64,000 nucleotides of DNA, taken from the IMG/VR virus record IMGVR_UViG_3300025751_002818, positions 26,576 to 90,575 of that record; one strand, 5' to 3'. The DNA comes from a virus. Its lineage: Duplodnaviria > Caudoviricetes. Under the pieces are notes generated by a model. It was not told the DNA's origin. It saw nothing but the letters and a program-made list of their open reading frames with translations, and did not search any database. This document shows, one piece after another, positions 12,001-57,382 of this stretch; within the stretch, counting starts at the first letter, position 1; the number at the start of each line of letters is the position of its first letter. The position numbers and the translations under genes were made by a program.

Positions 12001-15000
12001 ATTTCCGGAGGCGGAGGCGGTCCAGGTAATACACCACCACAAGATCCACCACCGCAAGATCCACCAGTACAAGAAACTTGTGGTAAGTTTAGAATAACAT
12101 TATACGATACTAATTCTGGTGAAGAAGGAACAACATACGAATTTGATGACGGCCTGTTTGATATTGTACAGCAATACATAGATTCTGAATATCAGAATAT
12201 TTCAGGTTACCAGAACCAATTTATAGAAGCAGGCGGTACTGGTGCAGACTGGACAACTGTACTTTCATATATTGAAGGCATAGGAGAAAATTATACTAAA
12301 ATTCCATATAATCAAATAGATGTTGATTTATGTGAATTACAAGATCTACATATTAAAGATATAAGTGGCAACACATGTACTTCAAGCGGTGAAGTATTAC
12401 ATTTAGGTGGTTCAGCAGTAAACTTACCTGAAGGATGTGATCCTTGTTCATTAGCAGATTCTATAAATGCTCAATCACCAAACTTTAGAGCAGAATGTGT
12501 ACCAGCAGAAGATAAACGCGAACCTAAGTCTTGTGTTATAAAAGGCGGCAGGCAGGCGTGGGGAACCACAGACTTTAGAGGTGTTGATAAAATTGTTAAA
12601 CTCGGCAATAGCAAAGGTCAGTCAATGGTTTATGTTGGGCAAAGAGACGACAACTATAAATTACTTGAAGGTAGAAAAGATGGTGTACCAACAGTATTAT
12701 TTGGTTCAAGACACGATGATGCGAGATTAATGGTTAGCATAGACGGTCCAAATTTGTTAAAAACTATTAAGTTACAATTAGAAGAAAAAGGCCTCGACCC
12801 AAACTCATACAAATCAATTGTGCTAAGAAGTACAACAAACAACGATCAAGCAGGTGAGTTATTACATTGGAAGAATTCTACAAGCAGAATAACAAATACT
12901 GGTTCTGGTATAAAAGGCGAGTACAATAATATAGATGACCGTCCATTTGCAATCGTGTACGCACCAGCATCAGGCTCAGTGTTTGACGAAGGCCAGCAAC
13001 TGCAAACCATTCAATATGGTAAAGACAATATGCATCGAGGTATTAATAAAGATACTATTTCAGTTTACGTGAGTAAATTAAACAGAAGCAGTTATGATTA
13101 TGGTACAAAAGGAAAAGGTATTTTATACAGATTACCAAAAAATGGATCAAGTCAGCACAAATACCTAGGAGACTTATTTAACTTCACAGTTATTGATGAT
13201 TTATATTTAGGAGGATTTGGTAGCAGAACAGATGAAGATACAAGAAGCAATGCAATTACTACAACAGAAGAGCAAGACGATAGAGGATTTAAGTTTACAA
13301 AAATAACAGGCTACGGAGAACGGGTACAATCCGGTGGTAAGTGGAAAGACAGAACAGGCGGCTGGTTCCAAGGTTTATGGCAATATCATGCTAAACAGCA
13401 AAGACGTGTACAAGGGTGTACTAGTGCCGAAGATGCCAATATACCACAACTTAATCCAATAGTAAGAATCAAGAGTGCTGTGCCGTTTAGTTTAGGAACA
13501 GGATGTGCTAGAAGTCCATTTACTGAAGTAGGTGACTTCCAACCTTACAGAGAAAAAGTAATAAATTCAAGTGCTAACTTAACAATAGCAAACGCTCTTA
13601 CACCTGAGCAATACAATGAGTTAGGTGGCGATACTACTTCAGTATTCACTCCAAAAGTTATATCAGGCGGTTTACCTGGACAAGAAGTTACTATTGTAGA
13701 TATTATGGGTGCTCCGGATACAAGTAATCCGTTTATGACATCCGACTATATTAGGATAGATGGCTATCCTGTTAATCCAAGATCAGGTGAAGGTACTAGA
13801 GATGGCCAAATAGCAAATGCTAATGTTGGTGTTGTGCAAACTGGTATGGTTGAAGACAGCACAGGTTTCAACTACATGGTTGGTGATAAATTAACCATAG
13901 TAGGAGGAAGACCAAAAACAATCGACGAAGATGCTTATTATCTTAGTGATATTATTGTAACAAACCCAGGTGCTGGATATAATTCATCAACAACAAGATT
14001 AGAAATCGTTGATGCAGAATTAGGAACTATTCTACCTGGAGTACAGATTAATCCAGTATTCCAACCAAGAGATGATGCTGTTACTCCTGTAACAAAAAAT
14101 ACAGGAAGAACTGCAATATCATCTGCTATACTACCTTACAAAACTTATGTAGGCTACAAAGGCTGTAGAGAAACAAATTGGTTAAATGACTTAGATACTA
14201 ATACAGCATTTATTGATAGAGCAGGTAATTCTATTAATGGAATAACACTAGATGCTAGACGTGTCGACATTGGTATAGATTCACTGAATACATACTATGA
14301 AGAAACAGTTGCCTTATCAGCCACAACTGCTATGGAATTAGGCACAACATATAAAGCATTTATTGGTACAAGAAAGTATGAAAACTTTGGCGAATTCATG
14401 ATGTTCAATTTTGAAGAGAATAGTACAACAGGTATCAATGACAGAGGACAAAGTAACTTTACAAGTTCTTTCAGTGAAAGCGAAAGAACTAATTTAAATG
14501 GTGCGTGGATCATGTGCTGGAATATTCCTAACATACAAAATAAATTTAATTCTACAAATGCACATGATAATTTTAGTAACTTAACAACAGGCACAGTTGG
14601 TATAATGAAATCATACTTTGATGCAGAAGCATTTGGACCTTTAACAAGAGATGACTTTAATCACTTTTTAAGCGATAATATAAAAGAAACAAATGGTCGA
14701 ATTGTTAAGTTCTTAAAACTTGCAAATGATAGAGTTTACTTCCAAGTTATGAATCCATATGATTTAGATACATCAGCAGGCAGATCTATAGGTACACCAG
14801 ATTTTACAAACATGTTTGCAAGATTCTATCCAATTAATGCATTAAATGAATTTAGCACTGACACCACATCTACTTTTGCAGATAACTACGAAATAACTAT
14901 AGAAAATGATACTAGTATTTCTAGTAATGTAACAGCATCTGGTACAGCAACATTTACAATGAATTCAAAAGATGCTGTACACGGTCTTAAAGTAAAAGCA

Positions 15001-18000
15001 AAACGATTAGGTACAAATCCTGATGCCACAATGCAACAGTTTGACATATTCATATTCCAAGACGGGGTTGATGTAGGGTATCTTAGAATACCTGCAACAA
15101 TACATTTTACTATTCCAGCGAATACTCATGGTGGTGAATTTGATATTACAGGTACTACTTTAGCAACTAATATGTCTAAACTAAATTACAGTACTGTTTA
15201 TAGACCAGTAGTACAACCAGTTAACGAATTAGAAGAGTCACAAGCAATTATTTACAAATTTGATTTTAGTAATTTGCCTGATGATGCCAAAGTTAATGAT
15301 ATAGATATTGATATAAGGTTTGACAGTTATGCACCAGGTGACTTTGATATGATGTGGTTAACATCACCAGAAGGCCGAAGAATACCTATATTGCAAACTT
15401 TAGGTAAGTTTGGCACAGCAGGCCAACACGACCAACTTGGTTTCCTTGATGGTTATGATTATCACAATTCTGGTTTATTACAACAATTTGATTTTACATT
15501 AACATCTAACCAGAGTGCTGAGGCTATAAAATATGGAGGCGTTAATCTTCTTTATAGTAATAAAGTTAAACCTTCAATAGGTATGCCAACTAGACATGCA
15601 GAAAACAATGGACAAGATTATGATAGAGCAAACGGTGATATTTCTAAAATATTAGGTAGTCCATATGGAGATAGTATTTTAGCAAGTCAATATGGAATAA
15701 ATTATAACTCTGCAGAAAATGTTCTTAGAAAATTCTTAAGGGAGACCGACGGAAATATCAGAGGTATATTAGGTAAAGGTACTTGGTTCCTTGAATGGTC
15801 TAGACCTGGTAGAATTATAGATTCGAATTATGATCCTGAACAAGCAGGTAATAAAAAAACTAAAATACGCACACCGAACATAAAAATTAAATACACATCT
15901 GCTAGTGAAAACCCAGCATACGATACAGCCGACAAAGAGAGCATTGGCGATGTTACCATTATACAAAAAGGTGGTTTCCAGCCTGAGTTTGCAACTCGAC
16001 GATATACTGTAGTAGCAAAAGGCAGTAGTGGTAGTGGATTCGAAGCACAGGCATTCCTGAAAAAAGGTAAATTAGTAGGGGAAGATAATCCAGAACTCAA
16101 GAGTCAAACAGCAGTATTTGAAGTATTAAAAATCAACCAAGCAGGTAGTGTTACAAAACTTAGAATATTAGACAGAGGAGTATACGAAGTATTCCCAGCA
16201 GAATTTGAAAGAGGTGTAGCACTTAAATATCTTGATGGCGATATGGCGAGCCCAGGTATGCAGACAAGACCGGCTGGCGAAGGTTATGGTGCTAGAGTAC
16301 AATGCACATCAAGAAGTGTTATAAATTGCCAACAACCACCAGGCATTGTTGATAGAAATGCAGGGCCATCTAGGCCTGCTACACCAACTGAAATACTGGC
16401 GGATGCAATTAATACTGCCGGAGGATTAGACGGAGGCATTACATTAAGTTCATATCCAATTAACCCATCAGTGCATACATTGTCAATAAAAACAGATGCC
16501 GATGGGTTTGAATTAAGTGACATAGTGCCGGGAACACTCGATGCATTAGGTATTCCAGCAGGTGATTACGGTCCAAATGCTTTTGGATTTAGTGCAGAAG
16601 TAGGCGATGGCGGAAACGGGTTTGGCCTAAACGACAGTGGAATTAGAAAAGATAATCCTTTTGACAAAGGTGACCCTGATAGTTTGATATTGTATAATGC
16701 ATCAACACCTCCAGAATTTGATGGTTTAAGTAGTTCAAATTTTGGTAATGTTTATAGTTACGATATTAATAGAGTTAATGGTGGGCAATTAATTACAGAA
16801 AAATTACAATCAGAAGTTGATGTATTGTATTTAAAATCTGCAAGAGTCAGAAGTAGATATGAATTGAAGTCGCTTATGCCTAAGGCATGGGTGGACAACT
16901 ATGATGTAAATGGCTGGGCATATTTAGAGAATGGCAAAGTTATTTACAGAAAAGACGCATTAGTTGATAGTAGTAAAATTAAATCTGCATTAATTTACGA
17001 TAATATTACAGGTGAAAGAATTTCCGATGTATATTTAAATGATCCATTTAAAAATGTACACATGCCTGAAGTAGAAAGAAACTTAACTTATATTTCAGAA
17101 AGTGACCCTGTTTATTATGCAGACGATAGTAGTAACTTTAACAGTAAAAATGTAGGCGAACTTTGGTGGAATACATCAAATATGCGTGTACGATGGTATG
17201 AACAATCTGATGATGATTATAGAAGGCAATACTGGGGGTCATATGTAGACGGCTCAAAGGTTGATGTATATGAATGGATAGAATCAACAGAAACACCGAT
17301 AGAATATAGTGGAGAAGGCACCCCATTAGACATAGAAAAATATTTAATAGATCAAAAATATATGTCTAGTACAGGCATATTTACGAATCTATATTATTAT
17401 TGGGTTAAAGATATAACAGAAGTGCCGCAAGTAAAAGGTAGGACAGCAAGTGCTTCAAGTGTTGCTTCACTAATAGCATCACCTAAGTTAGAAAATATAC
17501 CAACATTTGGTGCAATATCCAACAACAGTATAGTTCTTAATAATGTAAAATCTTACTTAACAGATGATGAAAGTGTATTCCAAATAAACTTCAAAAGAAC
17601 TGAAACCAAATATAAAAACAAACATGAATCTTATATACTATTAGGCGAAGATAATATTGCAGGTAAGATACCTGACGAATTTTTCCAAAAACTAGTTGAT
17701 AGTTTAGTTGAAGAAGACAGATTAGGAAAGGTTGTTCCAGATCCATATTTAAACAAATTTGAAAAATACGGTATATCTATCAGGCCAAGACAAACAATGT
17801 TTGTTAATCCAAAAAATGCTAGAAGAGAGTTAGTATACTTTATTAACAGCATAATGAAAAATATCAAACTTACAGATGATTTATATACAGGATGGAATTC
17901 AACATTAACAACCAGTGCTTTTTATGAATTTATAGATTGGGTAGAAACAGGTTATGATACAAATACTATTAAATCCAGAGCCAGTGTTAAATCAATAAAA

Positions 18001-19848
18001 CAAATGAGAGGCTTGACAAATATTCCAGATGGAGCATTTGTAAGGTTAGTCGGTACTGGTACAAATCCAGATAAATTCTACATATACGATTCTGTAAAAG
18101 ATGATTATGATTTAGTTAAAATTGTAGGCGGTACAATAAAACTGAAGGATAGTGTTTTTGGTACAATAAATCCGGGACTTGCATCTGAACTTAGAAAACT
18201 ATTATTTGCTATACGCGATAATATATTTAAGAACACTAATTTAGAAAATAGATTATATTTCTCAATGCTAAATTATGTATTAACCGAACAATATCAAACA
18301 GACTGGTGTTTCAAAACAACATACTTCAATGTTCGTCAAAGTGCAGAAAATTTAATACAAACACCGTCAACTAAAATAGATACATTTGATAGTGTTGTTA
18401 AAAGTATTAAAGAAAACAAACCGTATACAAGTAAATTAAGAGATTTTGAAGATAGAAAGATTAGTATTGATTCACTGAAATCATTTGCAACAGATTTTGA
18501 TAGACCGCCTTATCAGCCAGACTTATCAACTACTGCCAAGATACTTGATGACAATAATTCTGCAGATGTTAGTATTTTAACAAATAATAACGAATATGTC
18601 AACTGGTCAAATAATTATAGTAATAATAGTACAAAGATTAGAACTATAACAGAAAAAATATTCATTGACAGAATAGATGATGAGATATCGCCAATTTATA
18701 ATCATACAGATAAAAATGGCATAATGACTGTGCAATTGGCATCAAAATATAAACAGCCACAATCTAATACAAGTGCTATTAGGATGGAACAATTAGCCAA
18801 TGCAAGTAGTAATGCAACGCCTATAAATCACATTGAGAGAGTGTTTAAGCATAATACAGTTGTCACAGATTTAACTAAGAAAATTGCTAATACAAGCATA
18901 TACTCAAGTGATATTATTGCAGGATTTATTGCAACAAGAGATGCAACATTAAGAACACTAGCATACGCAGACTTCTTTGGTGAAGAACTAGATGCTAATG
19001 TTTTTGCAAAAGCATATTATGATTCTATTGGTAAAGAGATAATGTCTACAGGACTTGGATACGACTTGTTTGGTTTTGATAGTTCAGGTTTTGATTCTAA
19101 GCAAAGTGTAAACAATTACACAGTTAATGCCGCAGTACAAAGTCAATTAATTAGAGATACACTAACATATCAAGGATTTGATAGTAGCACATTCTTTACA
19201 GGTTTAACAGGACCTAGTATACCACCAGAACATGCATTATTTAAACCATTAGAAGGTTTGCAGATTAATGTTCAATCAAATATGACAGCATATGATAATG
19301 ACGGTACAGTAGTTGGTAATCAAGATGGCATATTCAGACCTAAATCTGGTGCTACACAATTAGCAGGTACATACGGTAATGCTAATGTTTCATACAAAAT
19401 ATTTGTTGGAATGAGCGGTAATACTGAGTATGTTAGACTAAGCGACAGTAATAAAACAACACTAGCGGCAAATATTACTGCTAAGAGTTTGACAATACAA
19501 ATTACAGATGCAAGTACTATTACACCACCATATACAGGAAGTCCAGCAACAGCAGTCTTTATTGGAGACGAAAGAATAACATTTGAAGGAATTGAAGGCA
19601 ATACCTTAACAGGTGTAACAAGAGGAACAAACGGTACATCGGCAGAACCTCATACAGTAGGAGAGTCAGTATACGATGCAACTGAATCAAATAACATTAA
19701 TACTAGTGCATTTGCATACGGGGCCAATGCAGATCCAGAGATAACTTTATGGAATGTTGATAGCGGAGGTGCTTCATTACCACTATCAAATGCTAATACA
19801 TCTATAGCAAGATTCCTACAAGCAAGTCCAGGGTCATACTTTGGCTAG
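1..19848 (+). CDS. Giant virion structural protein (baseplate/tail-associated), 5'-truncated, at least 6,615 aa
   Basis: Frame 1 is open from base 1, so the GTG at 121 is not the true start. Motifs PGYWRG..YYYDT..PWEM, GD..P.E.AWR.SS.YPF, EEWAIK.G.FG and GELWWN...WYEQ...YR..YWG resemble the giant structural protein of GAP32/RaK2-like jumbo myoviruses (recalled, not searched). Several I.N.G.GY beta-repeat motifs; T/N/S/G-rich; upstream of tail-fibre genes. Confidence 0.8.
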   Translation: MFPQDDTAIAEKIYRIQDNSGTIQFVEDTSLSNLVVTNGQVYSITGTNIGLDYYWTGTSWKQAQQKIQINQEPLFNLYDSAGTKVDDPAKYPHSDFKGCPVFTYNTDKTSTKQTSYDAVLGANVVYQTSKFNSEPTFFNHLGNHTVNYKANLLANTSTIPGYLFYKDLQQDYKGNDNTRFKNNWHPISYPHQYRDFSNVETYFTNEVVKYEGQYFIANANISAGSFNISNFKYYEDDNSLYSKQYVEDVIIIDKVNSADKFFTTSASPHNNDIIVKLNDTALTINKDFAIRNSSTGIVINPTLNDVSLNNTGLGYEVGDILTLSIAGSNSNIAITVTDAESYDGNISNGGGQIKTISVSNYGLYSELVGHPGNITSIVTTASNNGHGVDATFNFTFNQTVTLKNTDVLNVKTFTKEGRKTTIDSYGFFEIPSALKYNPLNTEITETRLSDLIGHGNKLLLGQEGFSGKVTGNNNFKDTSKTFNVNDINIGQIDSDLLHSMYLSKNEDRNLINALRFGNDQYNNFKKKFISNLELYINNNDYLSQTNLEILDTVLKTIKSSKVTEGGFDLSYMVPIGTDYSNEEIVISNVSLQEYTFSNTVNIALDKNLYILQHNNTVLCADKDFTVDSYLPFDITLNNSITLAENDTLNLRIYEDSESADVPASLSKLGMFRAFQPQFMTDTSYQVNKDVILCHDGSYVIKQNDKIDDIILTFEQIIYSNIEEEYRNCEYIELNEYEIKPSFFCETDYSLVEYNKLLTTNFNKWNRQSKVDYRTNTVFDSTNEFTWNYASGPTEPGYWRGMYDYYYDTQTPTVTPWEMFGYCKKPSWWDTEYPTAITSSYTAFWNNVRDGYIPAGSRKGYWKRWARPTIYSYLPVDSSGNLRSPKEIVYTSLTGDSLNIDNLWAFGDIAPVEYAWRKSSHYPFAILEMLYLSRPGEFAKLFYDKRNLQRLSVQPEQLVDKTTGKRKLRQNFEPHGYKSTDNIITLRPGYTTLLYQYLSFYSLNINVEIGNPVKTLDTRLGHKFAGFVNSKQLNVFSESISTDGLSASQVLPKEDVTVNLHTSPFNSRNFYTGVKITKQAEGYSVSGFDTVSQYFDIIPSDVAGPFEGVQEGGTPADFSVFETLTSYLKDEIIKLGSVYYIAKQNISPGAFDSNMWTPLKSLPTIGGASGTVYQLGTGVTEKVYYDTVFQNAGKVFDFLISLSRKQKEIGFDFGEFDSSINSMNDWILAGKRFLFWSTENHEIGDSIKLSPLAETLKFVSTTGKISKINRQINEQYSIVDENNKAIIPEDCSIVREDNTITVSPIGNRIYGMLLHTELVEHAFVINNKTVFNDIINDNVLGIRQDRLEINTQRSRNWDGRYQAEGLVIVGDAVLPNFDTLIDSIRLYHDKDTTQLDPLKSQLAKGLLGYQTTNEYADIKIDDTIGFQYYKGLINQKGTANSLTSLIRSNVVNTNKNIEIFEEWAIKRGEFGDVYNHQSMDIKLEQDKFTRDNQQIEIIYPENVTGAVSNIFVFERNTTYYNVPTIEIDPPASGNAAQATAKLFANAQLESVTITNGGDGYASKPNVAVITGNIVISQFSDVLAFGLAGSNASVDLPLTGANAVTNVNIYDHTTESNLDIYLGNERSIDSVVELLNNKFTNANIANIVAYGDIDTETEKHLVTQVTKAGSNTRISTDRATITSNTSIEINTPVGSNAFVITNGASTLTLSNVDSITNTNPATVTLTTKTGFTPLQNGDTLTFVNHEPYSVLTSDILNKTYFVKATADSTIYELYTNETLTANVDATSWYNESVSGTDTHLQSVGAYRSAEADLVNVDFNYSTITGSGIRNTSYFAELSAFNNSYYAEAGTSNTQIKLYTDPALQIPLNTTALSKPFSDTNLANDFIQANVTVLGTGGDNRLFIKGTDFTIREVRLPGKLSDETTLEVLNIPAGRYQPTQRFPIRSANNTTTNDIIVSVDGKNVGTTYWSYDRGARTSITANASIVNDYNINPNNAFSIVLGGQNRFEDQNITRLNGLYPFAEIYIDGNKVNNTPDYDAFTLTNDLTETTISFSNASLYTDNFSIGSNITVIESGSVQFNNTFTADVPGKVLSIKSVANDTLIANTISKRTYERTKDILTDNKITIDIDDTETMLKRPSNSLQDGLWYRDNKQDYIVPNAGYVNRNKVNWESIDLPYFANLIGSGKVNIPNENDYLHLGKSENEDWNVFQLKKHGIESTTGNVSGAKNYIDNVNGRAMLFSDQRLSKWTDGNILGDKTNANFYDNIVVIKNANLSDTVLEWSNENFVFTPRVVYKGDYKPLKKINRGIVKIEPGHTKPITKVEPYKDQNYMARIYAEKSHPAPGLEFFTRASVIKDNLPNAHANSVLISPNSLAGLGVGDIVRFTGTQATAANLTLGKAYTVTGISERGLGGNPGAVDVDDPSKGFFTINEANVTGTDYASINSDCYVTYESDLDFNVNMKVKGLSGASTVLLEVGDTYNLNVSSYISNGLDIDFGLTSGERITNTNDFYVEDSSYAVANWNSSSKTFEISSNVTTQTAAITRPGFNEITLAAFGNSDGKGNSTLAGANSAIIDKGDFVQFTSVGNYSGNVYPVQSNDGNFIQIYDPAITSNTAGRTAVVYTGSKETRTGSISSLTSNALTLSSFTTSNLGNYGFGNVQYMNSNTSTGVIPGVSGSERPFKINGNTVIVDVADSVRTMQTRFPVHTLRDTTNNTVDLFFRDNGAGEFARVLFNDSEKTPEEQQLLSNDPSKLFNYNNKPVYLGLGLPISRNQLSLETDFTGIPESLRSIDGVELDLEFRYVTEQGLLELLRQTGIKGKLVTSDTSSVEFVNNAYEMLSKTENFDSAWWIENFTYTSDNPSLDGMYIELQARNGNNVTSKLDLIPRHIGEHEAFNITGEVEKGLTISTVASRLLDKNNKHKLKLDFSDLHPMSFTKVISVIDKKQNDLIWTDPNGNIIQVHPSQPMKIRSSLKTNKLKPSHVNGGHYPFEWWSEDVKNVLSQGADNKIILNLGFENGLTTYPGNNNFDIAVPLVIVHGAKFKYTLAPTTKNELLNLRVAIKDDTGNISQVVDRKITSVGQSSITIDNSDNTFTTNDTTNNLNAIIYQVDENKNKQVLANDYGSPVEKSTTDNGYSAVLLQPKNALSSLSNGNTLGYISTLPTQIGSAGTFYVGINNSANVSLDSIFGSNLDIALDYLPLNHTGVTSKQIDVTNVNVAIDVHVIEPQHKMFMDTEAVNNSILRFADTVHGANSILTGNILVANTQTNYAIIPKGISNNVGDFAINETQKNSLGIIVSSAYGPHLVLNKPNNLLSVNDTIFVNTSGSANGINNTEFRIREVTENTFTIKLANTNVIPTAELSSMKYLTYGSPIIQGTASTSTVTTRTIHVPANIHVFEPGDNITLNTGAVDTASVNGQTYIVSAVLENAIMINHATAPTSLTTNLTASLTGNANLHIVTLPRGYAIPGVTGSIYDPENNYSLGSNTTVTLNKITDLDFDKNFTTTDSKPVMYFEKDLGTSFNDDEYMIDIYEATRFYSKDHKIGKVDDNQLVVSSTNASSEGLVNIELPNGLRGLSVGANVTFSHSQTGHVLSGNSFVVKDFVNIVDNIEGGSEQYITIEAPGATATANVFSVSYDNYIPSQNRSIKISKTKNYDGFATPFMADKDSFVVNTVYTGNAITNGHWVSDTMLITGTTDFQNEINLKPSHNHIAIKNSPIRNYNATYKMAPIGLDQRRLNKNQIQVFGFTNSNVALEFTDKNVSYSLTDHNVVEVNDNKTYLPMQDTVEQVADSINFVSDFKAGAIDKEKKIEVGFLFGYRDPRSDNRSAPDFNQKYIQRPADVTGLDQVYSYEYIGAPGGNALKGGVNKYSPIKLNETIAERRAPSKLSGKYIIDMQGLEEQVYYGTLNEERTKRPHGAPAYKVLDGKITSDKQLVKDYENNLSNMYLDPTLRTIKNKAEPPFGSPKFSVWPYTGYTGYYGGDVAGFNFYDHYDGVRRQLNGHGGGGGISGGGGGPGNTPPQDPPPQDPPVQETCGKFRITLYDTNSGEEGTTYEFDDGLFDIVQQYIDSEYQNISGYQNQFIEAGGTGADWTTVLSYIEGIGENYTKIPYNQIDVDLCELQDLHIKDISGNTCTSSGEVLHLGGSAVNLPEGCDPCSLADSINAQSPNFRAECVPAEDKREPKSCVIKGGRQAWGTTDFRGVDKIVKLGNSKGQSMVYVGQRDDNYKLLEGRKDGVPTVLFGSRHDDARLMVSIDGPNLLKTIKLQLEEKGLDPNSYKSIVLRSTTNNDQAGELLHWKNSTSRITNTGSGIKGEYNNIDDRPFAIVYAPASGSVFDEGQQLQTIQYGKDNMHRGINKDTISVYVSKLNRSSYDYGTKGKGILYRLPKNGSSQHKYLGDLFNFTVIDDLYLGGFGSRTDEDTRSNAITTTEEQDDRGFKFTKITGYGERVQSGGKWKDRTGGWFQGLWQYHAKQQRRVQGCTSAEDANIPQLNPIVRIKSAVPFSLGTGCARSPFTEVGDFQPYREKVINSSANLTIANALTPEQYNELGGDTTSVFTPKVISGGLPGQEVTIVDIMGAPDTSNPFMTSDYIRIDGYPVNPRSGEGTRDGQIANANVGVVQTGMVEDSTGFNYMVGDKLTIVGGRPKTIDEDAYYLSDIIVTNPGAGYNSSTTRLEIVDAELGTILPGVQINPVFQPRDDAVTPVTKNTGRTAISSAILPYKTYVGYKGCRETNWLNDLDTNTAFIDRAGNSINGITLDARRVDIGIDSLNTYYEETVALSATTAMELGTTYKAFIGTRKYENFGEFMMFNFEENSTTGINDRGQSNFTSSFSESERTNLNGAWIMCWNIPNIQNKFNSTNAHDNFSNLTTGTVGIMKSYFDAEAFGPLTRDDFNHFLSDNIKETNGRIVKFLKLANDRVYFQVMNPYDLDTSAGRSIGTPDFTNMFARFYPINALNEFSTDTTSTFADNYEITIENDTSISSNVTASGTATFTMNSKDAVHGLKVKAKRLGTNPDATMQQFDIFIFQDGVDVGYLRIPATIHFTIPANTHGGEFDITGTTLATNMSKLNYSTVYRPVVQPVNELEESQAIIYKFDFSNLPDDAKVNDIDIDIRFDSYAPGDFDMMWLTSPEGRRIPILQTLGKFGTAGQHDQLGFLDGYDYHNSGLLQQFDFTLTSNQSAEAIKYGGVNLLYSNKVKPSIGMPTRHAENNGQDYDRANGDISKILGSPYGDSILASQYGINYNSAENVLRKFLRETDGNIRGILGKGTWFLEWSRPGRIIDSNYDPEQAGNKKTKIRTPNIKIKYTSASENPAYDTADKESIGDVTIIQKGGFQPEFATRRYTVVAKGSSGSGFEAQAFLKKGKLVGEDNPELKSQTAVFEVLKINQAGSVTKLRILDRGVYEVFPAEFERGVALKYLDGDMASPGMQTRPAGEGYGARVQCTSRSVINCQQPPGIVDRNAGPSRPATPTEILADAINTAGGLDGGITLSSYPINPSVHTLSIKTDADGFELSDIVPGTLDALGIPAGDYGPNAFGFSAEVGDGGNGFGLNDSGIRKDNPFDKGDPDSLILYNASTPPEFDGLSSSNFGNVYSYDINRVNGGQLITEKLQSEVDVLYLKSARVRSRYELKSLMPKAWVDNYDVNGWAYLENGKVIYRKDALVDSSKIKSALIYDNITGERISDVYLNDPFKNVHMPEVERNLTYISESDPVYYADDSSNFNSKNVGELWWNTSNMRVRWYEQSDDDYRRQYWGSYVDGSKVDVYEWIESTETPIEYSGEGTPLDIEKYLIDQKYMSSTGIFTNLYYYWVKDITEVPQVKGRTASASSVASLIASPKLENIPTFGAISNNSIVLNNVKSYLTDDESVFQINFKRTETKYKNKHESYILLGEDNIAGKIPDEFFQKLVDSLVEEDRLGKVVPDPYLNKFEKYGISIRPRQTMFVNPKNARRELVYFINSIMKNIKLTDDLYTGWNSTLTTSAFYEFIDWVETGYDTNTIKSRASVKSIKQMRGLTNIPDGAFVRLVGTGTNPDKFYIYDSVKDDYDLVKIVGGTIKLKDSVFGTINPGLASELRKLLFAIRDNIFKNTNLENRLYFSMLNYVLTEQYQTDWCFKTTYFNVRQSAENLIQTPSTKIDTFDSVVKSIKENKPYTSKLRDFEDRKISIDSLKSFATDFDRPPYQPDLSTTAKILDDNNSADVSILTNNNEYVNWSNNYSNNSTKIRTITEKIFIDRIDDEISPIYNHTDKNGIMTVQLASKYKQPQSNTSAIRMEQLANASSNATPINHIERVFKHNTVVTDLTKKIANTSIYSSDIIAGFIATRDATLRTLAYADFFGEELDANVFAKAYYDSIGKEIMSTGLGYDLFGFDSSGFDSKQSVNNYTVNAAVQSQLIRDTLTYQGFDSSTFFTGLTGPSIPPEHALFKPLEGLQINVQSNMTAYDNDGTVVGNQDGIFRPKSGATQLAGTYGNANVSYKIFVGMSGNTEYVRLSDSNKTTLAANITAKSLTIQITDASTITPPYTGSPATAVFIGDERITFEGIEGNTLTGVTRGTNGTSAEPHTVGESVYDATESNNINTSAFAYGANADPEITLWNVDSGGASLPLSNANTSIARFLQASPGSYFG
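11980..12066 (+). repeat. Gly-rich then Pro-rich linker (GHGGGGGISGGGGGPGNTPPQDPPPQDPP) inside the giant protein
   Basis: Locally GC-rich stretch with a tandem CAAGATCCACCA repeat, read directly from the sequence. Confidence 0.9.
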
Positions 19849-20574: not shown

Positions 20575-22554
20575 ATGGCTTACACATTTTCAAATACGCA
20601 AGGAACTGCAATAACTGTAAATGACAATCAGTTAGATCAGTCTACATATTCGTTAACATTACTAGGTAAAAATGTTACTAACTACGGCCAAATTATTGCA
20701 CAAAATACAATTAGGCAATTAGAAAACTTTGCTGGTCCTAGTGAACCTGTTGCAACAATTAAATTAAATGGGCAACTTTGGTACAATACTGCTGATGAAC
20801 ATTTAACAGTTTATAGAGGTAAAAATAGTGACAGAGGTTTTACTCAATTGGCGTATGTACCTAAAGTAACTGGAACTGAGCCATCTAACAACATACAAAC
20901 TGGCGAACTTTATTATAGCACTATCAATGGTGAGTTAAATTTAAAAATTTATAATGGTACTGCATGGGTAAATGTAATAGGCACAGAATATATTCAAGAC
21001 ATTACAGCCGCCCAATTAGTAACAAATGGCACTCACACAAACATAACTGCTACATATGATGACGCCAATGATGCCGCAATAGACTTAGTAATATCAGATG
21101 CAACTATTAGAAGTAAGTTTTCAGGCGGTACTGGTGTAACTTATAATAGTAGCACTGGAGAAATTGCTATAGGACAAGCAGTAGAAACTACATCCAATGT
21201 TCAATTTAACAATTTAGTAGTTGACGGTGACTTAACAGTTAACGGTACGCAAACAGTTCTTAACACTGAAACATTAACAGTTGATGATAACTTAATTGTT
21301 CTTAACAACAACGAAGCAGGTACTCCAAGTGCAAATGCAGGTATAGAAGTTGAAAGAGGTACATCGACTAACGTTCAATTAAGATGGAACGAAAGCGGAG
21401 ATTACTGGGAAGTAACAAGAGACGGCTCAACTTACGAAAAAATTTATACAGAATCAGAAATAGAAGGATTTTTTAGTGCCACAGATGCAGGTGGTGACGG
21501 ATCATTTGCGTACAATGGTGCTGGAGTATTTACATATACAGGTCCAAGTACCAGTGAAGTAAGAGCACATTTTTCAGCAGGTACTAACACAACATATTCG
21601 GGTGGACAGTTTAGTATATCCGATGCAACTATTAGGGGCAAGTTTTCAGTAACCGACAGTGGCGGAGACGGAAGCCTATCATATAGTAATGGCGTATTTA
21701 CATATACAGGTCCGAGTGCTAGTGAAGTAAGAGCACATCTTAGTGCCAGCGGTGACTTATCATACAATAGCGGTACTGGTGTTATCAGTTTCACACAAAG
21801 AACAGATGCACAAGTTAATACGTTAGCAGATGCTAGAATACAAGCCAATCTTATAGATGAAGATACTTTTGCTACCAACAGTTCAACCAGAGCGCCATCT
21901 CAGCAATCAGTTAAGGCATACATTGCCACACAAATTGCAACAAAAGATGCATTAAGTGAATTAAGTGGTAGTACTGACGATGTATCAGAAGGATCAACAA
22001 ATTTATACTTTACGCCAGCAAGAGTAGTAACTGCAATAGCCGATAATAATATTACAACAAAAAATATTGTAGCAACAGGCCCAACTGGAACTTACAATGT
22101 AGGTTCGAGTAGTGTTAAGTTTGGTACTATGTATGCAAACACGTTTAGTGGAACAGCAAGTTCGGCTCAATATGCTGACTTGGCAGAAATGTATTTGGCA
22201 GATGCTGAATATGAAGAAGGAACAATTTTAGTATTTGGCGGCGAAGCAGAAGTAACAACTTCTGATGTAAAAGCAAGTCCGTCAATAGCAGGAGTAGTAT
22301 CACATAATCCTGCATATTTAATGAATTCAGAATTACAAGGCGACCATGTAACAGCGGTTGCACTTAAAGGTAGGGTACCGGTCAAAGTAGTAGGAGCAGT
22401 ATCAAAAGGTGATGTGCTAGTACATAGTGCTAAACCAGGCCATGCCGAAGCGGCAGTCAACAACATGAACGTTAATGGACCTAGTTGCATAGGTATAGCA
22501 ATTACGGAAAAAACAGACGAAGGTGCTGGAACAGTGGAGGCTCTAGTTAAATAA
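20575..22554 (+). CDS. Tail fibre protein 1 with C-terminal peptidase G2-like autocleaving chaperone domain
   Basis: N-terminal anchor L.GKNVTNYGQ..A.N..R.LENFA...GQLWY; internal 56-aa tandem repeat; C-terminal SAQYADLAE...GVVS.NPAYLMN...VAL.GRVPVKV; AGGA RBS upstream. Confidence 0.8.
   Translation: MAYTFSNTQGTAITVNDNQLDQSTYSLTLLGKNVTNYGQIIAQNTIRQLENFAGPSEPVATIKLNGQLWYNTADEHLTVYRGKNSDRGFTQLAYVPKVTGTEPSNNIQTGELYYSTINGELNLKIYNGTAWVNVIGTEYIQDITAAQLVTNGTHTNITATYDDANDAAIDLVISDATIRSKFSGGTGVTYNSSTGEIAIGQAVETTSNVQFNNLVVDGDLTVNGTQTVLNTETLTVDDNLIVLNNNEAGTPSANAGIEVERGTSTNVQLRWNESGDYWEVTRDGSTYEKIYTESEIEGFFSATDAGGDGSFAYNGAGVFTYTGPSTSEVRAHFSAGTNTTYSGGQFSISDATIRGKFSVTDSGGDGSLSYSNGVFTYTGPSASEVRAHLSASGDLSYNSGTGVISFTQRTDAQVNTLADARIQANLIDEDTFATNSSTRAPSQQSVKAYIATQIATKDALSELSGSTDDVSEGSTNLYFTPARVVTAIADNNITTKNIVATGPTGTYNVGSSSVKFGTMYANTFSGTASSAQYADLAEMYLADAEYEEGTILVFGGEAEVTTSDVKASPSIAGVVSHNPAYLMNSELQGDHVTAVALKGRVPVKVVGAVSKGDVLVHSAKPGHAEAAVNNMNVNGPSCIGIAITEKTDEGAGTVEALVK
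21481..21740 (+). repeat. Tandem 168-nt (56-aa) repeat in fibre 1 (GGDGS..Y..GVFTYTGPS.SEVRAH)
   Basis: TTTACATATACAGGTCC and AGTGAAGTAAGAGCACAT each recur with 168-nt spacing (tacatataca at 21531 and 21699). Confidence 0.9.
22161..22184 (+). repeat. 24-bp exact direct repeat, copy 1 (TTCGGCTCAATATGCTGACTTGGC)
   Basis: Identical to 24278-24301; encodes S-A-Q-Y-A-D-L-A. Confidence 0.9.
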
Positions 22555-24665
22555 TGGCATATACAATTACATCAAGTACAGGAGTCAGTTATACTGTAGA
22601 AGACGGTACAATTAATAATATTTTTAGCCTAAAATTAGTTGGTAAGAATGTTACTAACTATGGCCAGGTATTTGCAGAAAACAGTCTAAGACATTTAGAA
22701 AACTTTGCAAGTCCTTTAGCACCTACACCAAATACAACATTAGTAGGTCAAGTTTGGTACGATACCACAGAAAAAGTTTTAAGAGTTTATAAAGATAATA
22801 CATCAACATGGGTAAGAACATCACCAGTTATATCATCTAGTGCACCTGCAGACGGAGTAAGTGCCGGAGCAATGTATTTTGACACAACAGATGATAAATT
22901 AAAAATACACAACGGTGTTGCTTATGTTGACAGTAGTTATGCTGGTGAAATATCAAATGAATACACTAATGTAAATAATTTAAATACACCAAGTTCTTAT
23001 GGTACTAAATTAAGAAATATATTCTTAAAAGACAACGGTGATATTCCAAGAGCCGTTAGTGCATTAGTATATGTTAATGACGGTGAAACTAGTAGCACAA
23101 GGCCAGGTGGTGAAACTATCATGGCTATATTTAGTGATCACACAGCATTCACTGTTAAGGATGTCGCAGGTTCATCTCATGGTGATGCATATAATTGGTA
23201 TGATCAATTAGCAGAAGCAGACGGTATTGGTATTGAAATCAGTCCTGGTATGAACTTAAGGCAGGAGTATGCTAATACATCTATAGCATTAGCAGACAGA
23301 GCCTATAGAGCAGACGGCATTACAGGTAATTTAGTTATAGGTGCTAGTAATGTTGGCATTACATCTATTGTTACATCATCAAGTGATATTATTCCTGACT
23401 CAGGTGATACATTTGATTTAGGTAGTAGCACAAATAGATGGCAAAATGTTTATGTAAATGGTATACTTTCATTAGGCCAAACAGGTGGCACAGCAGAAGT
23501 TAGATCAACTGCCGCCAACGTTACAACAAAAATTGGTACAACAGCATTTCCTATTACAACATCAAATATCAGCGATGCTACAGTAAACACAATCAGAGTT
23601 ACAAATTATCAAGGTGGCTCAGGTAATATTAACATTGGTAATGTTATTGCTACTGGTTCTATCACATCAAGCAGTTTAGCAGTATCAGGTGGAGCGGCAA
23701 TAACAGGTAATATTGACGGAACTATTTTTAAAGGTACGACAGCAATATTAACAGGCAATGGCTCATTTGGAAGTATAACAAACTCAGGTTTAACAACACT
23801 AAACGGCTCGGTGATACTTGGTGATAATAACACCGACGATATTACAATAAATGGTCAACTAAAATCACATTTAATACCAGATGCAACAACAACATATAAC
23901 TTAGGTTCCAGTACAAATTATTGGAATAATTTATATATTAATACAATTAATGCTTCTGGTAATATGACCTTTGCTGGTTTGCTAAATCTTACAAGTACAG
24001 CAAGTCCAAGCAGTAACTCAGATGTAAGTGCCCCATTATATCTAGATGGTGGTGCAGTAATTGAGAAAAAATTATATGTAGGCGAAACTATTGATGGCAG
24101 AGACGCAGAACTATGGAAATTAAAATTAAAAGATCTTGCTAATCCAACAAGTGCGTCAGATACAAGTGCATCATTTTACACAACCGGTGGTGCAGTAATA
24201 GAGAAAAGATTATTTGTAGGCGAAAATATAACAACCAGTGCAAATGTTATTGGTAATTATTTTGAAGGTACAGCAACTTCGGCTCAATATGCTGACTTGG
24301 CTGAGATATATTCTGCAGACGCAGACTACGAACCAGGTACAGTTGTAAAACTAGGCGGTAGTGCAGAAGTTACACAAACAACTTCATTTAACGACCCAGA
24401 AGTATTTGGTGTAGTGAGTACTAACCCTGCTTATCTAATGAACAGTGAAGCAGAAGGTGTTGCAGTAGCACTAACAGGTAGAGTACCTGTTAAAGTTGAA
24501 GGTCGTATAAAGAAAGGTGAAAGACTTGTAAGTGGTTCTAAACCAGGCTATGCAAAAGCATTAATGAAAAACGAATACGACATGAGATGTGTTATTGGTA
24601 GAGCACTACAAGACAAAGACACTTTTGATGATGATGTAGTCGAAGTAGTAATCGGCGTCAAATAA
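22554..24665 (+). CDS. Tail fibre protein 2 with C-terminal peptidase G2-like autocleaving chaperone domain
   Basis: Same N-terminal anchor and SAQYADLAE C-terminal domain as fibre 1 but a different middle; TAATG coupling to fibre 1; duplicated GGAVIEK(K/R)L.VGE motif. Confidence 0.8.
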   Translation: MAYTITSSTGVSYTVEDGTINNIFSLKLVGKNVTNYGQVFAENSLRHLENFASPLAPTPNTTLVGQVWYDTTEKVLRVYKDNTSTWVRTSPVISSSAPADGVSAGAMYFDTTDDKLKIHNGVAYVDSSYAGEISNEYTNVNNLNTPSSYGTKLRNIFLKDNGDIPRAVSALVYVNDGETSSTRPGGETIMAIFSDHTAFTVKDVAGSSHGDAYNWYDQLAEADGIGIEISPGMNLRQEYANTSIALADRAYRADGITGNLVIGASNVGITSIVTSSSDIIPDSGDTFDLGSSTNRWQNVYVNGILSLGQTGGTAEVRSTAANVTTKIGTTAFPITTSNISDATVNTIRVTNYQGGSGNINIGNVIATGSITSSSLAVSGGAAITGNIDGTIFKGTTAILTGNGSFGSITNSGLTTLNGSVILGDNNTDDITINGQLKSHLIPDATTTYNLGSSTNYWNNLYINTINASGNMTFAGLLNLTSTASPSSNSDVSAPLYLDGGAVIEKKLYVGETIDGRDAELWKLKLKDLANPTSASDTSASFYTTGGAVIEKRLFVGENITTSANVIGNYFEGTATSAQYADLAEIYSADADYEPGTVVKLGGSAEVTQTTSFNDPEVFGVVSTNPAYLMNSEAEGVAVALTGRVPVKVEGRIKKGERLVSGSKPGYAKALMKNEYDMRCVIGRALQDKDTFDDDVVEVVIGVK
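24278..24301 (+). repeat. 24-bp exact direct repeat, copy 2
   Basis: Identical to 22161-22184. Confidence 0.9.
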
Positions 24666-24701: not shown

Positions 24702-25274
24702 ATGAAAGGAGACTATTGGCTATTTTTTGATTCAGCATTAAGTTCTGATTGGTGTGATTACATTGTTAATTATGCTTTAGAAAACTATGAACCACGTGAT
24801 GCAGTTATTGGTTTTGAAAATGCAACACATGACGAAACGTATCGCAAAAGCGAAATACGTTGGCTCAATCCAAAAACAGAAGAAGCAATAACCAAAGAAA
24901 TTTGGCACTACGCCAACCAGGCAAACAGAGATTCATTTGATTTAGATTTACGATATGTAAACGATATACAGTTTACAAAGTATATTGGCGACCCAGACAA
25001 TCCAGGTAAGTATGATTGGCACCATGATGTAGACTGGGCCGAAAGCAGAGCATTTCATAGAAAACTTAGTATAATATTTCAATTAACAGACCCTAGTGAA
25101 TACGAGGGTGGTAAGTTTGAATTTGATAATACGTTGCCGGCATTACCAGATGGAGCATTCAATAAAGGTTCCGTAATTGTATTTCCTAGTTTTCACAGGC
25201 ATAGAGTAACTCCAGTAACCAGCGGATTACGACACAGTTTAGTAACTTGGGTAGAAGGACCACATTGGCGATGA
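24702..25274 (+). CDS. 2OG-Fe(II) oxygenase, prolyl-4-hydroxylase/PKHD-like
   Basis: R.SEIRW, QFTKY, YDWHHD (HxD), RKLSI, YEGG.FEF, GSVIVFPSF..HRVTPVTSG.R.SLV.W. Confidence 0.9.
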   Translation: MKGDYWLFFDSALSSDWCDYIVNYALENYEPRDAVIGFENATHDETYRKSEIRWLNPKTEEAITKEIWHYANQANRDSFDLDLRYVNDIQFTKYIGDPDNPGKYDWHHDVDWAESRAFHRKLSIIFQLTDPSEYEGGKFEFDNTLPALPDGAFNKGSVIVFPSFHRHRVTPVTSGLRHSLVTWVEGPHWR

Positions 25275-27208
25275 AACATTATTATATAAATTTAAATAGA
25301 AGACCTGAGCGTAATCAAAACATGATTGATTTGTTTGCTAAACTTGAAATAACAGATTATGAAAGAATTGAAGCAGTAGACGGTAATTTAGTCGATTATA
25401 GCAAAGTACTCAAAAGCGGTATGCAAGTATGCAAAAATTGGTTAGACCCATTAGAAGACAGACCGCTTACTACAGGAGAAGTTGGTTGTATTCTTAGTCA
25501 CATAGTAGCATGGTCTAGAATAGTTAAGAGCGGCGAGCCAGGTGTTGTTTTAGAAGATGATCTATTTCACAGCAGTGACAAATATAATTTAACACAGATA
25601 AAAGAAAGACTTGATGAGTTTGATTTAGTCTATTTGTCTAAGTGGAATATGGATATGGAAATGGTAGGCTTTGATGATTTATTTGAAACGCCTGGATACT
25701 GCTATTGGACAGCCGGATATGCCTTAAGTGTTCAAGGTGCTCAAATGTTATTAAATGATGTAGGATTAAATAACTTAATACCAGCAGATGAATACTTACC
25801 AATGATGCTAGGTACCAGTCCCTTGTTAGACAAGTATCCACAGTTTAAAGAATTACCAAAATTAAAAGGTCTAGCATACAAAGAAAATATTTTTCATCCA
25901 TACAAAAGAGAAACAGAAATTGGCAGAACCGACACAGAAACCGCAACTACATTTAAAGAATGGAAAAATTTTAAATTACTTACAGTTGCAACAGAAAGTC
26001 TTAAAGCAGAAAACTTAATTAAAAGTTGTGAAGTACATGGTCTAGAATTAGAAATGTTAGGTGTTGGCGAGCCATGGGAAGGTGGTGTAATGGCTGATGG
26101 TCCCGGAGGCGGACACAAAGTTCATTATTTAAGAAGTAGGTTGCGTAATGTCGACGACCATGATATAGTAATGTTTGTAGATGGTTATGATGTAGTTATA
26201 AACGATAATCAAAATGAATTAATAAAAAGATTTAAACAGTTTGGAGCAGATGTGGTATTTGCCGCAGAGCCAATAATATGGCCTGATAATACTATTGCAG
26301 ATCAATTTCCACAAGTACACACAAGAAATAGATATTTAAACAGTGGTGTATTTATTGGGAGAGCAGTTGTTATAAAAGAAATGCTCAAAAACGATATAAA
26401 GAAAAAAGATGACGATCAACTTTATTACCAAAAATTATTTTTAAGTGGCAAATACAATATTAGATTAGATGTAGAAAACTATCTTTTTCAATGTGTAAGT
26501 GGTAGTGCAAATAGTTTAAGTGTGTCAGATAATAATCAAGTTTACAATTCAGAAACAGGTTGTTATAGTTGTGTGCTACATGGTAATGGTGGAGATCAAG
26601 ACAAAGAAGCATACACAAGATTAGTAAATTTAATACTAAATCAGGGTGCTGTTATTCCAATTAACATTGCCAGATACAATAAAATATGGACAGTAGCCGA
26701 TAACATTGTGGCATTTGAATACATGACACCTCAGATGTGCGATGACTTAATTGGTGCCTGTGATGCCAGAGGCGGTTGGGAGCCAAGACCAGATGACGCC
26801 TATCCGGCACAAGAAATAAGAATCAAGACATTATGCCCAAGTCTATACAAGTACTTAGATAATCATTTAACTAAAAACATATGGCCGCAGTTGGAAGCAT
26901 ACTGGCCTCCAATGAGCATGTACGGTATAAGAGACTTCTTTGCTATGCGATATAGTTTAGATACACAAACAGAATTAGCATTACATAATGATGCTAGTAT
27001 GGTCAGCGGTAGTGTTAAATTAAATGACGATTATCAAGGTGCTGAATTAACTTTTCCTAGACAGCATTATACAAACAGGCATATACCACGAGGTTTAATG
27101 CTGATGTGGCCTGGGCAAGTTACACATCCTCATGTGTGTGAACCGCTAGAAGAAGGCGTTAAATACAGCCTTACATTGTGGACAAAAAGGTTTACTCAAG
27201 ACACATAA
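25271..27208 (+). CDS. Trifunctional fusion: GT25 (COLGALT-like) + PLOD-type glycosyltransferase + PLOD-type lysyl hydroxylase (2OG-Fe(II))
   Basis: Start reassigned to ATG 25271 (ATGA overlap). GT25: YINLNRRPER, IEAVDG, DPLEDRPLTTGEVGCILSH, VLEDD, YCYWTAGYALS.QGAQMLL, IPADEYLPMM. PLOD-GT: LLTVAT, LGVGEPWEGG, GGGHKV, IVMFVDGYDV, VVFAAEPIIWPD, YLNSGVFIG, DDDQLYY. Hydroxylase: LALHNDAS, YQGAELTF, PGQVTHPH, G.KYSL. Confidence 0.85.
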   Translation: MKHYYINLNRRPERNQNMIDLFAKLEITDYERIEAVDGNLVDYSKVLKSGMQVCKNWLDPLEDRPLTTGEVGCILSHIVAWSRIVKSGEPGVVLEDDLFHSSDKYNLTQIKERLDEFDLVYLSKWNMDMEMVGFDDLFETPGYCYWTAGYALSVQGAQMLLNDVGLNNLIPADEYLPMMLGTSPLLDKYPQFKELPKLKGLAYKENIFHPYKRETEIGRTDTETATTFKEWKNFKLLTVATESLKAENLIKSCEVHGLELEMLGVGEPWEGGVMADGPGGGHKVHYLRSRLRNVDDHDIVMFVDGYDVVINDNQNELIKRFKQFGADVVFAAEPIIWPDNTIADQFPQVHTRNRYLNSGVFIGRAVVIKEMLKNDIKKKDDDQLYYQKLFLSGKYNIRLDVENYLFQCVSGSANSLSVSDNNQVYNSETGCYSCVLHGNGGDQDKEAYTRLVNLILNQGAVIPINIARYNKIWTVADNIVAFEYMTPQMCDDLIGACDARGGWEPRPDDAYPAQEIRIKTLCPSLYKYLDNHLTKNIWPQLEAYWPPMSMYGIRDFFAMRYSLDTQTELALHNDASMVSGSVKLNDDYQGAELTFPRQHYTNRHIPRGLMLMWPGQVTHPHVCEPLEEGVKYSLTLWTKRFTQDT

Positions 27209-43437: not shown

Positions 43438-43666
43438 TTCTTTCTGCTTCTAAGTTGTCTACTACTGTTTGTACTAATGTGCTAATATGCTGTACTTCAA
43501 CATTTATCTTGTTATAACGATCTTGTAATTGTTTACCCCATACAGGACATACACCAATATGATCCGGCAAAGTTCCACCACAGGTAGTACACTTACCTTG
43601 TAACTTTTTCTTAATCGTCCTTAGTGTGGACTGGGACGTTATATTTTTCTTCGAAGTCTGCGGCAT
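43430..43666 (-). CDS. Small putative zinc-finger protein (CX2CX6HX3C) with coiled-coil tail
   Basis: KCTTCGGTLPDHIGVCP; start uncertain and overlaps the carbamoyltransferase 3' end; stop overlaps the next start region. Confidence 0.5.
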   Translation of the reverse strand: MPQTSKKNITSQSTLRTIKKKLQGKCTTCGGTLPDHIGVCPVWGKQLQDRYNKINVEVQHISTLVQTVVDNLEAERNV

Positions 43667-57209: not shown

Positions 57210-57382
57210 TAGTCGTCTAGTCCTGGGTAGTAGTTATCCGCTTTTTCGTTGTAGCCATAAAACGAACCTTCTTTCTCGTCTTTAGTTCGTTTAGCCTTAT
57301 CGCTTTTTTCACTTGCACCTAGTGGGTCAAGTAAAATCCTTTCCCTTCTAGACAGTTGTCTGTTTTCAATCTTATCGTACAT
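57209..57382 (-). CDS. Small hypothetical protein, 57 aa
   Basis: MYDKIENRQLSRRERILLDP...; TAATG-coupled on both sides. Confidence 0.55.
   Translation of the reverse strand: MYDKIENRQLSRRERILLDPLGASEKSDKAKRTKDEKEGSFYGYNEKADNYYPGLDD

Follow-up and report, generated by a model that had tools for sequence, protein, structure and literature searches.

P0001, a 645-residue protein encoded in a 64,000-nucleotide stretch of DNA from a marine Caudoviricetes virus (IMG/VR record IMGVR_UViG_3300025751_002818, positions 26,576 to 90,575; hereafter the window), is probably a single-chain, three-activity protein-lysine modification enzyme acting on a virion fibre protein. By analogy with the enzymes that modify collagen lysines in animals and collagen-like proteins in mimivirus, we infer its three activities, the sugars, the order of the steps and the substrate. 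The C-terminal 2-oxoglutarate (2OG)/Fe(II) oxygenase domain would hydroxylate a peptidyl lysine to 5-hydroxylysine (Hyl), the N-terminal glycosyltransferase (GT) domain of the GT25 family would place a hexose on the new hydroxyl group (by homology β-galactose from uridine diphosphate (UDP)-Gal), and the PLOD-type GT domain between them would add a second hexose (by homology α-1,2-glucose from UDP-Glc), giving Glc-Gal-Hyl or an analogue. The enzyme would be co-translated with a prolyl-hydroxylase-type oxygenase, P0004. Family-wide, the substrate would be the collagen-like Gly-X-Lys repeats of a large tail-fibre protein encoded just upstream, and in this phage the target would be some virion fibre protein.

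The frame of P0001 runs uninterrupted from the ATG at 25271 to the stop codon at 27206-27208 (open reading frame (ORF) call and translation), and every peptide quoted as a domain motif in the preliminary description, which had been made from the sequence alone, is present in the translation. The translational coupling claimed there was likewise found: the start codon overlaps, as ATGA, with the stop codon (TGA) of ORF 24702-25274, which lies upstream. As had also been described, the gene lies among phage genes, more precisely in a structural block directly after tail-fibre-like genes. The domain order is GT25, PLOD-type GT and lysyl-hydroxylase-like 2OG/Fe(II) oxygenase (Table 1). The phrog_61 profile ('2OG-Fe(II) oxygenase') matches P0001 over its full length, and an NCBIfam search returned no family covering the fusion. 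An AlphaFold2 model built from 24 homologues showed three compact domains with a mean predicted local distance difference test (pLDDT) value of 87.9, joined by linkers of low confidence at residues ~221-230 and 461-470.

The N-terminal domain matches Pfam family Glyco_transf_25 (PF01755) over residues 2-173 (E = 4e-22, 79.6 bits vs a cut-off of 24), and a sequence search of the PDB aligned the catalytic domain of human GLT25D1/COLGALT1 with residues 4-227 (E = 8e-29) and mimivirus R655 with residues 3-192 (E = 4e-8). In line with this, Foldseek superimposed the modelled domain on GLT25D1 (9evj), giving 2.3 Å root mean square deviation (rmsd) over 237 columns at 32% identity. Published functional residues of GLT25D1 and of the human lysyl hydroxylase (LH) LH3 were transferred to P0001 via HMMER alignments. 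For GLT25D1, residues D436/D437, D522, E523 and Y494/W495 and the lid motif have mutational or structural support, D522 being the catalytic base, E523 anchoring the Hyl amino group and the YW motif holding Hyl (PMC12987934). All of them have counterparts in P0001: R14 and D96/D97 align with the UDP-binding R354 and with the DXD motif (Mn2+/UDP) D436/D437, Y145-W146 and D173-E174 with Y494-W495 and D522-E523, and TDTE 220-223 with the lid motif 569-572. In the alignment of 24 full-length homologues, E95, D96, D97, Y145, D173 and E174 are invariant. Domain 1 is predicted to be an inverting GT-A enzyme with Asp173 as catalytic base.

The assignment of the middle domain is based on Pfam GT_PLOD (PF25342), which covers residues 232-443 (E = 5e-60, 203 bits vs a cut-off of 27), on PDB sequence matches to the GT domain of human LH3 (residues 236-442, E = 3e-36) and to mimivirus R699 (residues 250-441, E = 4e-34), and on a Foldseek alignment with LH3 (6wfv; template modelling (TM) score 0.85, rmsd 2.4 Å, 35% identity). 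R699 is a galactosylhydroxylysyl glucosyltransferase by assay (PMC9546862). The LH3 residues with mutational or structural support are D112/D115/H253, W75, W145, D190/D191 and, in the hydroxylase domain, H667/D669/H719 (PMC6082870). In P0001, W269, K283, D304, Y306 and D307 align with LH3 W75, K89, D112, Y114 and D115, E333, W337, D381 and D382 with E141, W145, D190 and D191, and H437 and N439 with H253 and N255. The DxxD and His residues of the Mn2+ site (D304, D307, H437) are invariant in the 24 homologues, and the features tied to GT activity, namely the UDP-stacking W269/Y306, the gating W337, D381/D382 and N439, are all present; in R699, the residues matching W269, Y306, W337, D381/D382 and N439 are required for activity.

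Residues 475-645 form the putative lysyl-hydroxylase domain. The PDB sequence search aligned the hydroxylase domain of human LH3 with residues 479-635 (E = 1.3e-5) and that of mimivirus L230 with residues 475-635 (E = 2e-3), and Foldseek ranked L230 (6ax6; TM score 0.74, rmsd 2.3 Å) above prolyl hydroxylases. The LH3 iron triad H667, D669, H719 corresponds to H572, D574 and H621, which are invariant in the 24 homologues, and Y561 aligns with LH3 Y656. The hydroxylase domain of PLOD and L230 enzymes forms a tail-to-tail homodimer. For residues 460-645 of P0001, a homodimer model scored 0.64 vs 0.20 for the best of 3 controls; among proteins of solved structure, the mark of 0.64 was attained by 20 of 30 that are pairs of one chain and 1 of 23 that are single chains. 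The model runs showed 100% contact agreement and a partner pLDDT of >=90. As dimers of LH3 and L230 have been solved, the score of the model may stem from resemblance to these alone; the modelled interface takes in residues 614-620, aligned with the LH3 segment preceding H719.

By sequence, profile and fold, each third of P0001 is therefore nearest to the collagen-lysine enzymes named in the preliminary description: GLT25D1, LH3 and L230 were the best solved matches of the three domains in Foldseek, and neither Pfam, PDB nor Foldseek searches gave a better alignment to unrelated GT or oxygenase families. As far as computation reaches, the interpretation given there is supported. P0001 is nevertheless a rearranged fusion and not an orthologue of LH3 or of GLT25D1. 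Compared with human LH3/PLOD3 (6fxk, 6wfv), whose GT and hydroxylase domains correspond to domains 2 and 3, it has in common the DxxD + His Mn2+ site, the residues W75 and W145, the poly-Asp loop and the HxD...H iron triad, but it has no signal peptide or endoplasmic reticulum context, carries a fused N-terminal GT25 domain and has Lys in place of Arg729. The accessory (AC) domain of LH3, of ~260 residues, is absent, a linker of ~30 residues standing in its position, and the alignment skips from LH3 chain residue 235 to 543. Human GLT25D1 (9evj, 9u7h) shares the DXD motif, the catalytic Asp, the Hyl-anchoring Glu and the YW and lid motifs; its non-catalytic N-terminal GT domain is missing from P0001, and its cleft residues K470, Y561 and T562 are not conserved. 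The statement that animals use separate proteins for these steps was imprecise, since LH3 already joins hydroxylase and glucosyltransferase and forms a complex with GLT25D1. The structure of this human LH3/ColGalT1 complex has been solved (PDB 8zgc, PMC11897130). It holds the same three catalytic modules for the route from Lys via Hyl and Gal-Hyl to Glc-Gal-Hyl, as non-covalently associated, separate proteins in human and in one 645-residue chain in P0001, which, because both the LH3 AC domain and the GLT25D1 N-terminal domain are absent, would be a trimmed covalent equivalent of the complex. Among viruses, mimivirus has a known set of enzymes for its collagen-like virion fibres (L230, R699, R655, L593), in which L230 combines a hydroxylase with a Hyl glucosyltransferase and R655 is a GT25 enzyme. 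A mimivirus counterpart of each P0001 domain was among the top PDB matches, and P0004 parallels the prolyl hydroxylase L593; mimivirus, however, encodes these functions in separate genes, whereas three are fused in P0001, and the host of the phage is a bacterium.

Nearly all published functional residues of the three domains are invariant among the 24 full-length homologues (35-84% identity), including those for metal, donor and catalytic base in each domain. Comparison with relatives at 93, 83 and 79% identity gave dN/dS values (nonsynonymous to synonymous substitution rates) of 0.04-0.14 in each domain with dS >=0.6, a sign of purifying selection, and the 645-codon frame is without insertions or deletions in all four relatives. 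P0001 is not decaying in its clade.

The preliminary description had reported the three-domain architecture from this one phage; a database search found it in many phages and some bacteria, and the fusion is hence not unique to this phage. Among cultured phages, full-length homologues of 35-39% identity occur in the Synechococcus myoviruses S-CAM9 (AOV60406.1), S-PRM1 (YP_010097865.1) and S-8S53/55/56 and in Roseobacter phage CRP-6 (gp58, phrog_61), where the databases name them hypothetical or 2OG oxygenase, the only other label in the family being GT25 or a variant of it; a megablast search with 12 kb around P0001 gave no match to cultured phages. IMG/VR contains at least 468 loci with the fusion. 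More than 120 clusters (90% identity) combine PF01755 and PF25342, named only 'GR25 family ... LPS biosynthesis' (LPS, lipopolysaccharide) or 'hypothetical', and 275 clusters at the 50%-identity level were found at E <=1e-30. ESM Atlas clusters of the P0001 architecture are 98-100% viral, mostly Uroviricota, and an Atlas cluster of 881 residues, which joins the domains GT25, GT_PLOD and Glyco_tranf_2_4, occurs most often in Nucleocytoviricota. Five metagenomic proteins of ~880-1150 residues (P0161, P0162, P0165, P0178, P0194) join GT25, GT_PLOD and a C-terminal 2OG oxygenase. Bacterial carriers include Streptomyces kronopolitis (locus L092) and sponge-associated metagenome-assembled genomes (MAGs; loci L087-L090 are from MAGs), and Kaistia terrae (L093) has the last two domains only. 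The closest published idea is that of Iyer et al. 2010, who predicted collagen-like or tail-collar proteins to be targets of bacterial dioxygenases and sulfotransferases encoded alongside them. Our literature search, which left most subscription journals outside its reach, found no account of a phage lysyl hydroxylase/GT fusion or of Hyl in phage fibres, and as far as found the P0001 fusion is a widespread family whose function has apparently gone unrecognised.

A survey of the gene neighbourhoods of homologues (83 loci collapsed into 50 sequence groups) revealed a strong family-wide association of the fusion with collagen-like fibres carrying lysine at the Y position. Upstream on the same strand, 24 of the 29 groups having at least 4 kb of upstream sequence contain runs of 8 or more Gly-X-Y triplets; downstream, such a run was present in only 1 of 31 groups. 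In loci with listed ORFs, the repeats lie mostly in one large fibre ORF (~490-3050 residues) located 0-3 genes upstream. Lysine occupied Y in 1097 of 4528 triplets (24%) and X in 1 (29 representative loci), which matches the Xaa-Lys/Hyl-Gly motif read by GLT25D1 (PMC12987934). The homologues of S-CAM9, S-PRM1 and CRP-6 directly follow tail-fibre genes, the nearby fibre gene containing 59-99 Gly-X-Y triplets rich in Gly-Gln-Lys. These homologues resemble P0001 in domain order, at 35-39% identity, and in their position after tail-fibre genes, and in the cyanophages S-CAM9 and S-PRM1 also in adjacent stand-alone 2OG oxygenases, but differ in that the fibres of the present phage have no Gly-X-Y triplet repeats. 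A stand-alone oxygenase of the P0004 type was found upstream of the fusion gene in 36 of the 83 loci, abutting it in many. Collagen-like genes also lie near the bacterial homologues, at 0.3 kb in S. kronopolitis, at 7.5 kb in K. terrae and within this range in L088, L089 and L090, the repeats of L088 and L092 being Pro-rich with little or no Lys; in the MAG locus L087, no collagen-like gene was present inside 10 kb. Threonine occupied 28% of the Y positions in the associated repeats. Gly-Pro-Thr-rich fibre repeats were seen in many loci, including L037, L038, L052, L076 and L090, and resemble the Thr-glycosylated collagen-like region of BclA of Bacillus anthracis; additional Thr glycosylation of the associated fibre repeats is conceivable by this analogy. 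A proposed link between an 'H-P-H' form of the second iron motif and the lack of a Lys-rich collagen neighbour was rejected, as locus L048 combines H-P-H with a Lys-rich collagen fibre.

Upstream of P0001 in the window lie P0004, two tail-fibre-like genes (P0003 and P0002), a gene with a phrog_11259 match and the gene of a giant virion structural protein (Table 1). P0004 matches PF13640 (E = 7e-13), PiuC/PKHD structures in the PDB (2e-5) and a chlorella-virus prolyl 4-hydroxylase (5c5t, 7e-4), and neither a sigma-70-like nor a terminator-like signal was found between it and P0001. A candidate late-promoter element, TATAAATA, occurs 6 times vs 12.5 expected and was discarded as not enriched. 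P0003 matches phrog_19602 (tail fibre) and phrog_14394 (virion structural protein), and its residues ~400-493 match fibre ORFs with collagen repeats in other loci, while residues 126-293 of P0002 match modules inside fibre ORFs that contain collagen repeats in L038, L059 and L039. The two proteins are ~51% identical in their C-terminal domains (~140 residues) and ~41% in their N-termini, which suggests a duplicated, mosaic fibre pair. The giant protein has a high content of Asn, Thr and Ser and was assigned to phrog_10938 ('virion structural protein', E = 1e-192); Pfam returned no family in it or in five ORFs downstream. In the relative at 79% identity (L084), the giant protein contains a Lys-free (Gly-Pro-Gln)8 run (G003:C1:25092-25204), at a site corresponding to ~11980-12080 of the window, where a Gly-rich and then a Pro-rich linker is found; the run could be a target of the adjacent prolyl-hydroxylase-type enzyme. 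The 72-93-kb contigs of the relatives (G001-G003) are 20-26% complete according to CheckV, and because of these low values the present contig is probably a fragment of a jumbo phage of ~350 kb, most of which is unsampled.

Table 1. Features of the window referred to in the text (window coordinates; GT, glycosyltransferase; DSBH, double-stranded beta-helix; aa, amino acids).
Feature	Position	Strand	Basis
Three-domain enzyme gene P0001, 645 aa	25271..27208	+	ORF and translation, Pfam, PDB matches, phrog_61, AlphaFold2 model
GT25 GT-A domain, residues 1-230, GLT25D1/COLGALT1 catalytic C-terminal type	25271..25960	+	Sequence and Foldseek
PLOD-type GT domain, residues 232-443, LH3/R699 Gal-Hyl glucosyltransferase type	25964..26599	+	Pfam, PDB, Foldseek
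Helix and low-confidence linker, residues 444-474	26600..26692	+	AlphaFold2 secondary structure, pLDDT dip at 461-470
DSBH 2OG/Fe(II) oxygenase, lysyl-hydroxylase type, residues 475-645	26693..27205	+	PDB sequence, Foldseek
Stand-alone 2OG/Fe(II) oxygenase P0004, 190 aa, PKHD/prolyl-4-hydroxylase type	24702..25274	+	Pfam, PDB
Tail-fibre-like P0003, 703 aa, candidate substrate, no Gly-X-Y repeats	22554..24665	+	phrog_19602, phrog_14394
Tail-fibre-like P0002, 659 aa, candidate substrate, no Gly-X-Y repeats	20575..22554	+	phrog_19602, phrog_6002, phrog_697 structural hits
Giant virion structural protein, C-terminal 6615 of 7102 aa, possible substrate	1..19848 (contig 25115-46423)	+	Open frame, phrog_10938
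Nol-like carbamoyltransferase	43611-45149
Second 2OG oxygenase	52395-53189
UDP-glucose dehydrogenase	53186-54514
ATP-dependent DNA ligase	57382-58653
Sulfotransferase	59895-60797

Several observations weigh against a virion-fibre lysine-modifying enzyme of the kind proposed, some of them concerning its chemistry and others its substrate. The donor sugars are not readable from the sequence, and mimivirus L230 attaches glucose, not galactose, directly to Hyl. For the oxygenase domain, the Pfam match (2OG-FeII_Oxy_3, residues 566-638, E = 1.5e-3) lies under the curated cut-off, LH3 Cys691 is not conserved (Leu593 of P0001 stands in its place), and the 2OG-binding R729 of LH3 is replaced by K631, which is invariant in the family. 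Prolyl 4-hydroxylases have a lysine in the position of R729, however, and 2OG binding by P0001 therefore remains plausible. In domain 1, GLT25D1 K470, Y561 and T562 align with W125 (K124 is adjacent), R213 and E214; in GLT25D1 they form a narrow cleft selecting Gly after Hyl (PMC12987934), and the acceptor specificity of P0001 could therefore differ. Together with the direct glucosylation of Hyl by L230, the frequent threonine at Y and the carbamoyltransferase, UDP-glucose dehydrogenase, radical S-adenosylmethionine (SAM) enzymes, sulfotransferase and second 2OG oxygenase encoded nearby, the changed cleft speaks for the same logic with another chemistry, for example Glc-Hyl, other UDP-sugars or another hydroxylated residue, with neighbouring genes possibly elaborating the glycan. 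We consider this rather unlikely, since the Hyl-holding residues of GLT25D1 (Y494/W495, E523) and its catalytic base are kept and the middle domain retains W145 and the poly-Asp features, which are not conserved in other LH enzymes (Scietti et al., PMC6082870).

As to the substrate, 5 of the 29 groups are without a collagen repeat in the available 4-10 kb upstream, six-frame scans (window at >=5 triplets, whole contig at >=5 and then >=4) found no collagen-like run of at least 4 Gly-X-Y triplets in the 90,575-bp contig, their sole match being to a Gly-rich linker of the giant protein, and the relatives at 93, 83 and 79% identity have no Lys-bearing collagen repeat in their contigs. Such an absence would fit an enzyme that remodels host LPS or other cell-surface glycans or tailors a secondary metabolite, as would the name 'GR25 family glycosyltransferase involved in LPS biosynthesis' given to relatives and the view of Iyer et al. 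2010, who took cyanophage dioxygenase clusters for secondary-metabolite genes. The bacterial GT25 LPS β-1,4-galactosyltransferases (8xlz, 8xc8) do share PF01755 and the GT-A fold, but they consist of a single domain, modify LPS cores and match far worse than GLT25D1 (sequence E = 0.4-0.5, Foldseek rmsd 8.6-10 Å); as Lys-at-Y collagen-like genes moreover adjoin homologues in phages and bacteria, and P0001 directly follows fibre genes, a role outside the virion is improbable. Still less probable is DNA hypermodification of the JBP or T4 type, in which a base is hydroxylated and then glycosylated: DNA-modifying 2OG oxygenases and GTs are common in phages and phrog_2297 ('DNA endonuclease') weakly matches the oxygenase domain (E = 9e-5), but this domain is nearest to lysyl and prolyl hydroxylases by sequence and fold, not to TET/JBP or AlkB, both GT domains are nearest to collagen GTs, and the gene lies in a structural and not in a replication module. 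That P0001 is a decaying, functionless relic in a clade free of collagen repeats, for which it could be said that ~105 kb of combined neighbourhood on four related contigs hold no such repeat except the Lys-free (GPQ)8 run in one, was already disfavoured and is the least credible of these explanations, given the intact, indel-free frame in all four relatives, the low dN/dS in every domain and the retention of all catalytic residues.

Because the enzyme is kept under selection without a local repeat, modification of a virion protein in this phage would have one of two targets, about equally likely: a protein encoded nearby (the non-collagenous fibres or the giant protein) or a collagen-like fibre encoded in the unsampled ~3/4 of the genome. 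The specific proposal that P0001 puts hexosyl-hydroxylysine on non-collagenous virion proteins, namely the two adjacent fibres or the 7102-residue giant protein, is put forward tentatively, as less likely than not. If true, Hyl-O-glycosylation would extend past Gly-X-Y repeats, and the carbamoyl-, sulfo- and radical-SAM enzymes encoded nearby might elaborate the glycan into a new type of virion coat. These genes belong to a dense block of modification genes at 33294-63862, which includes four ORFs with radical-SAM matches and one aminotransferase; a 1111-residue ORF at 40102-43437 on the minus strand showed no PHROG match.

Hyl-linked Glc-Gal is taken to be characteristic of animal collagen, mimivirus being the one viral exception. 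The family described here suggests that the whole pathway, in a single compact chain, is frequent among marine bacteriophages and present in some bacteria and giant viruses as well, and that it is tied to collagen-like receptor-binding fibres, an idea directly testable on the cultured phages S-CAM9, S-PRM1 and CRP-6. If true, a 645-residue enzyme native to a bacterial host would be at hand for hydroxylating and glycosylating recombinant collagen, the question of how the animal collagen-modifying enzymes evolved would be informed, and phage fibres would bear a post-translational modification that has so far been overlooked in studies of host recognition, stability or evasion.

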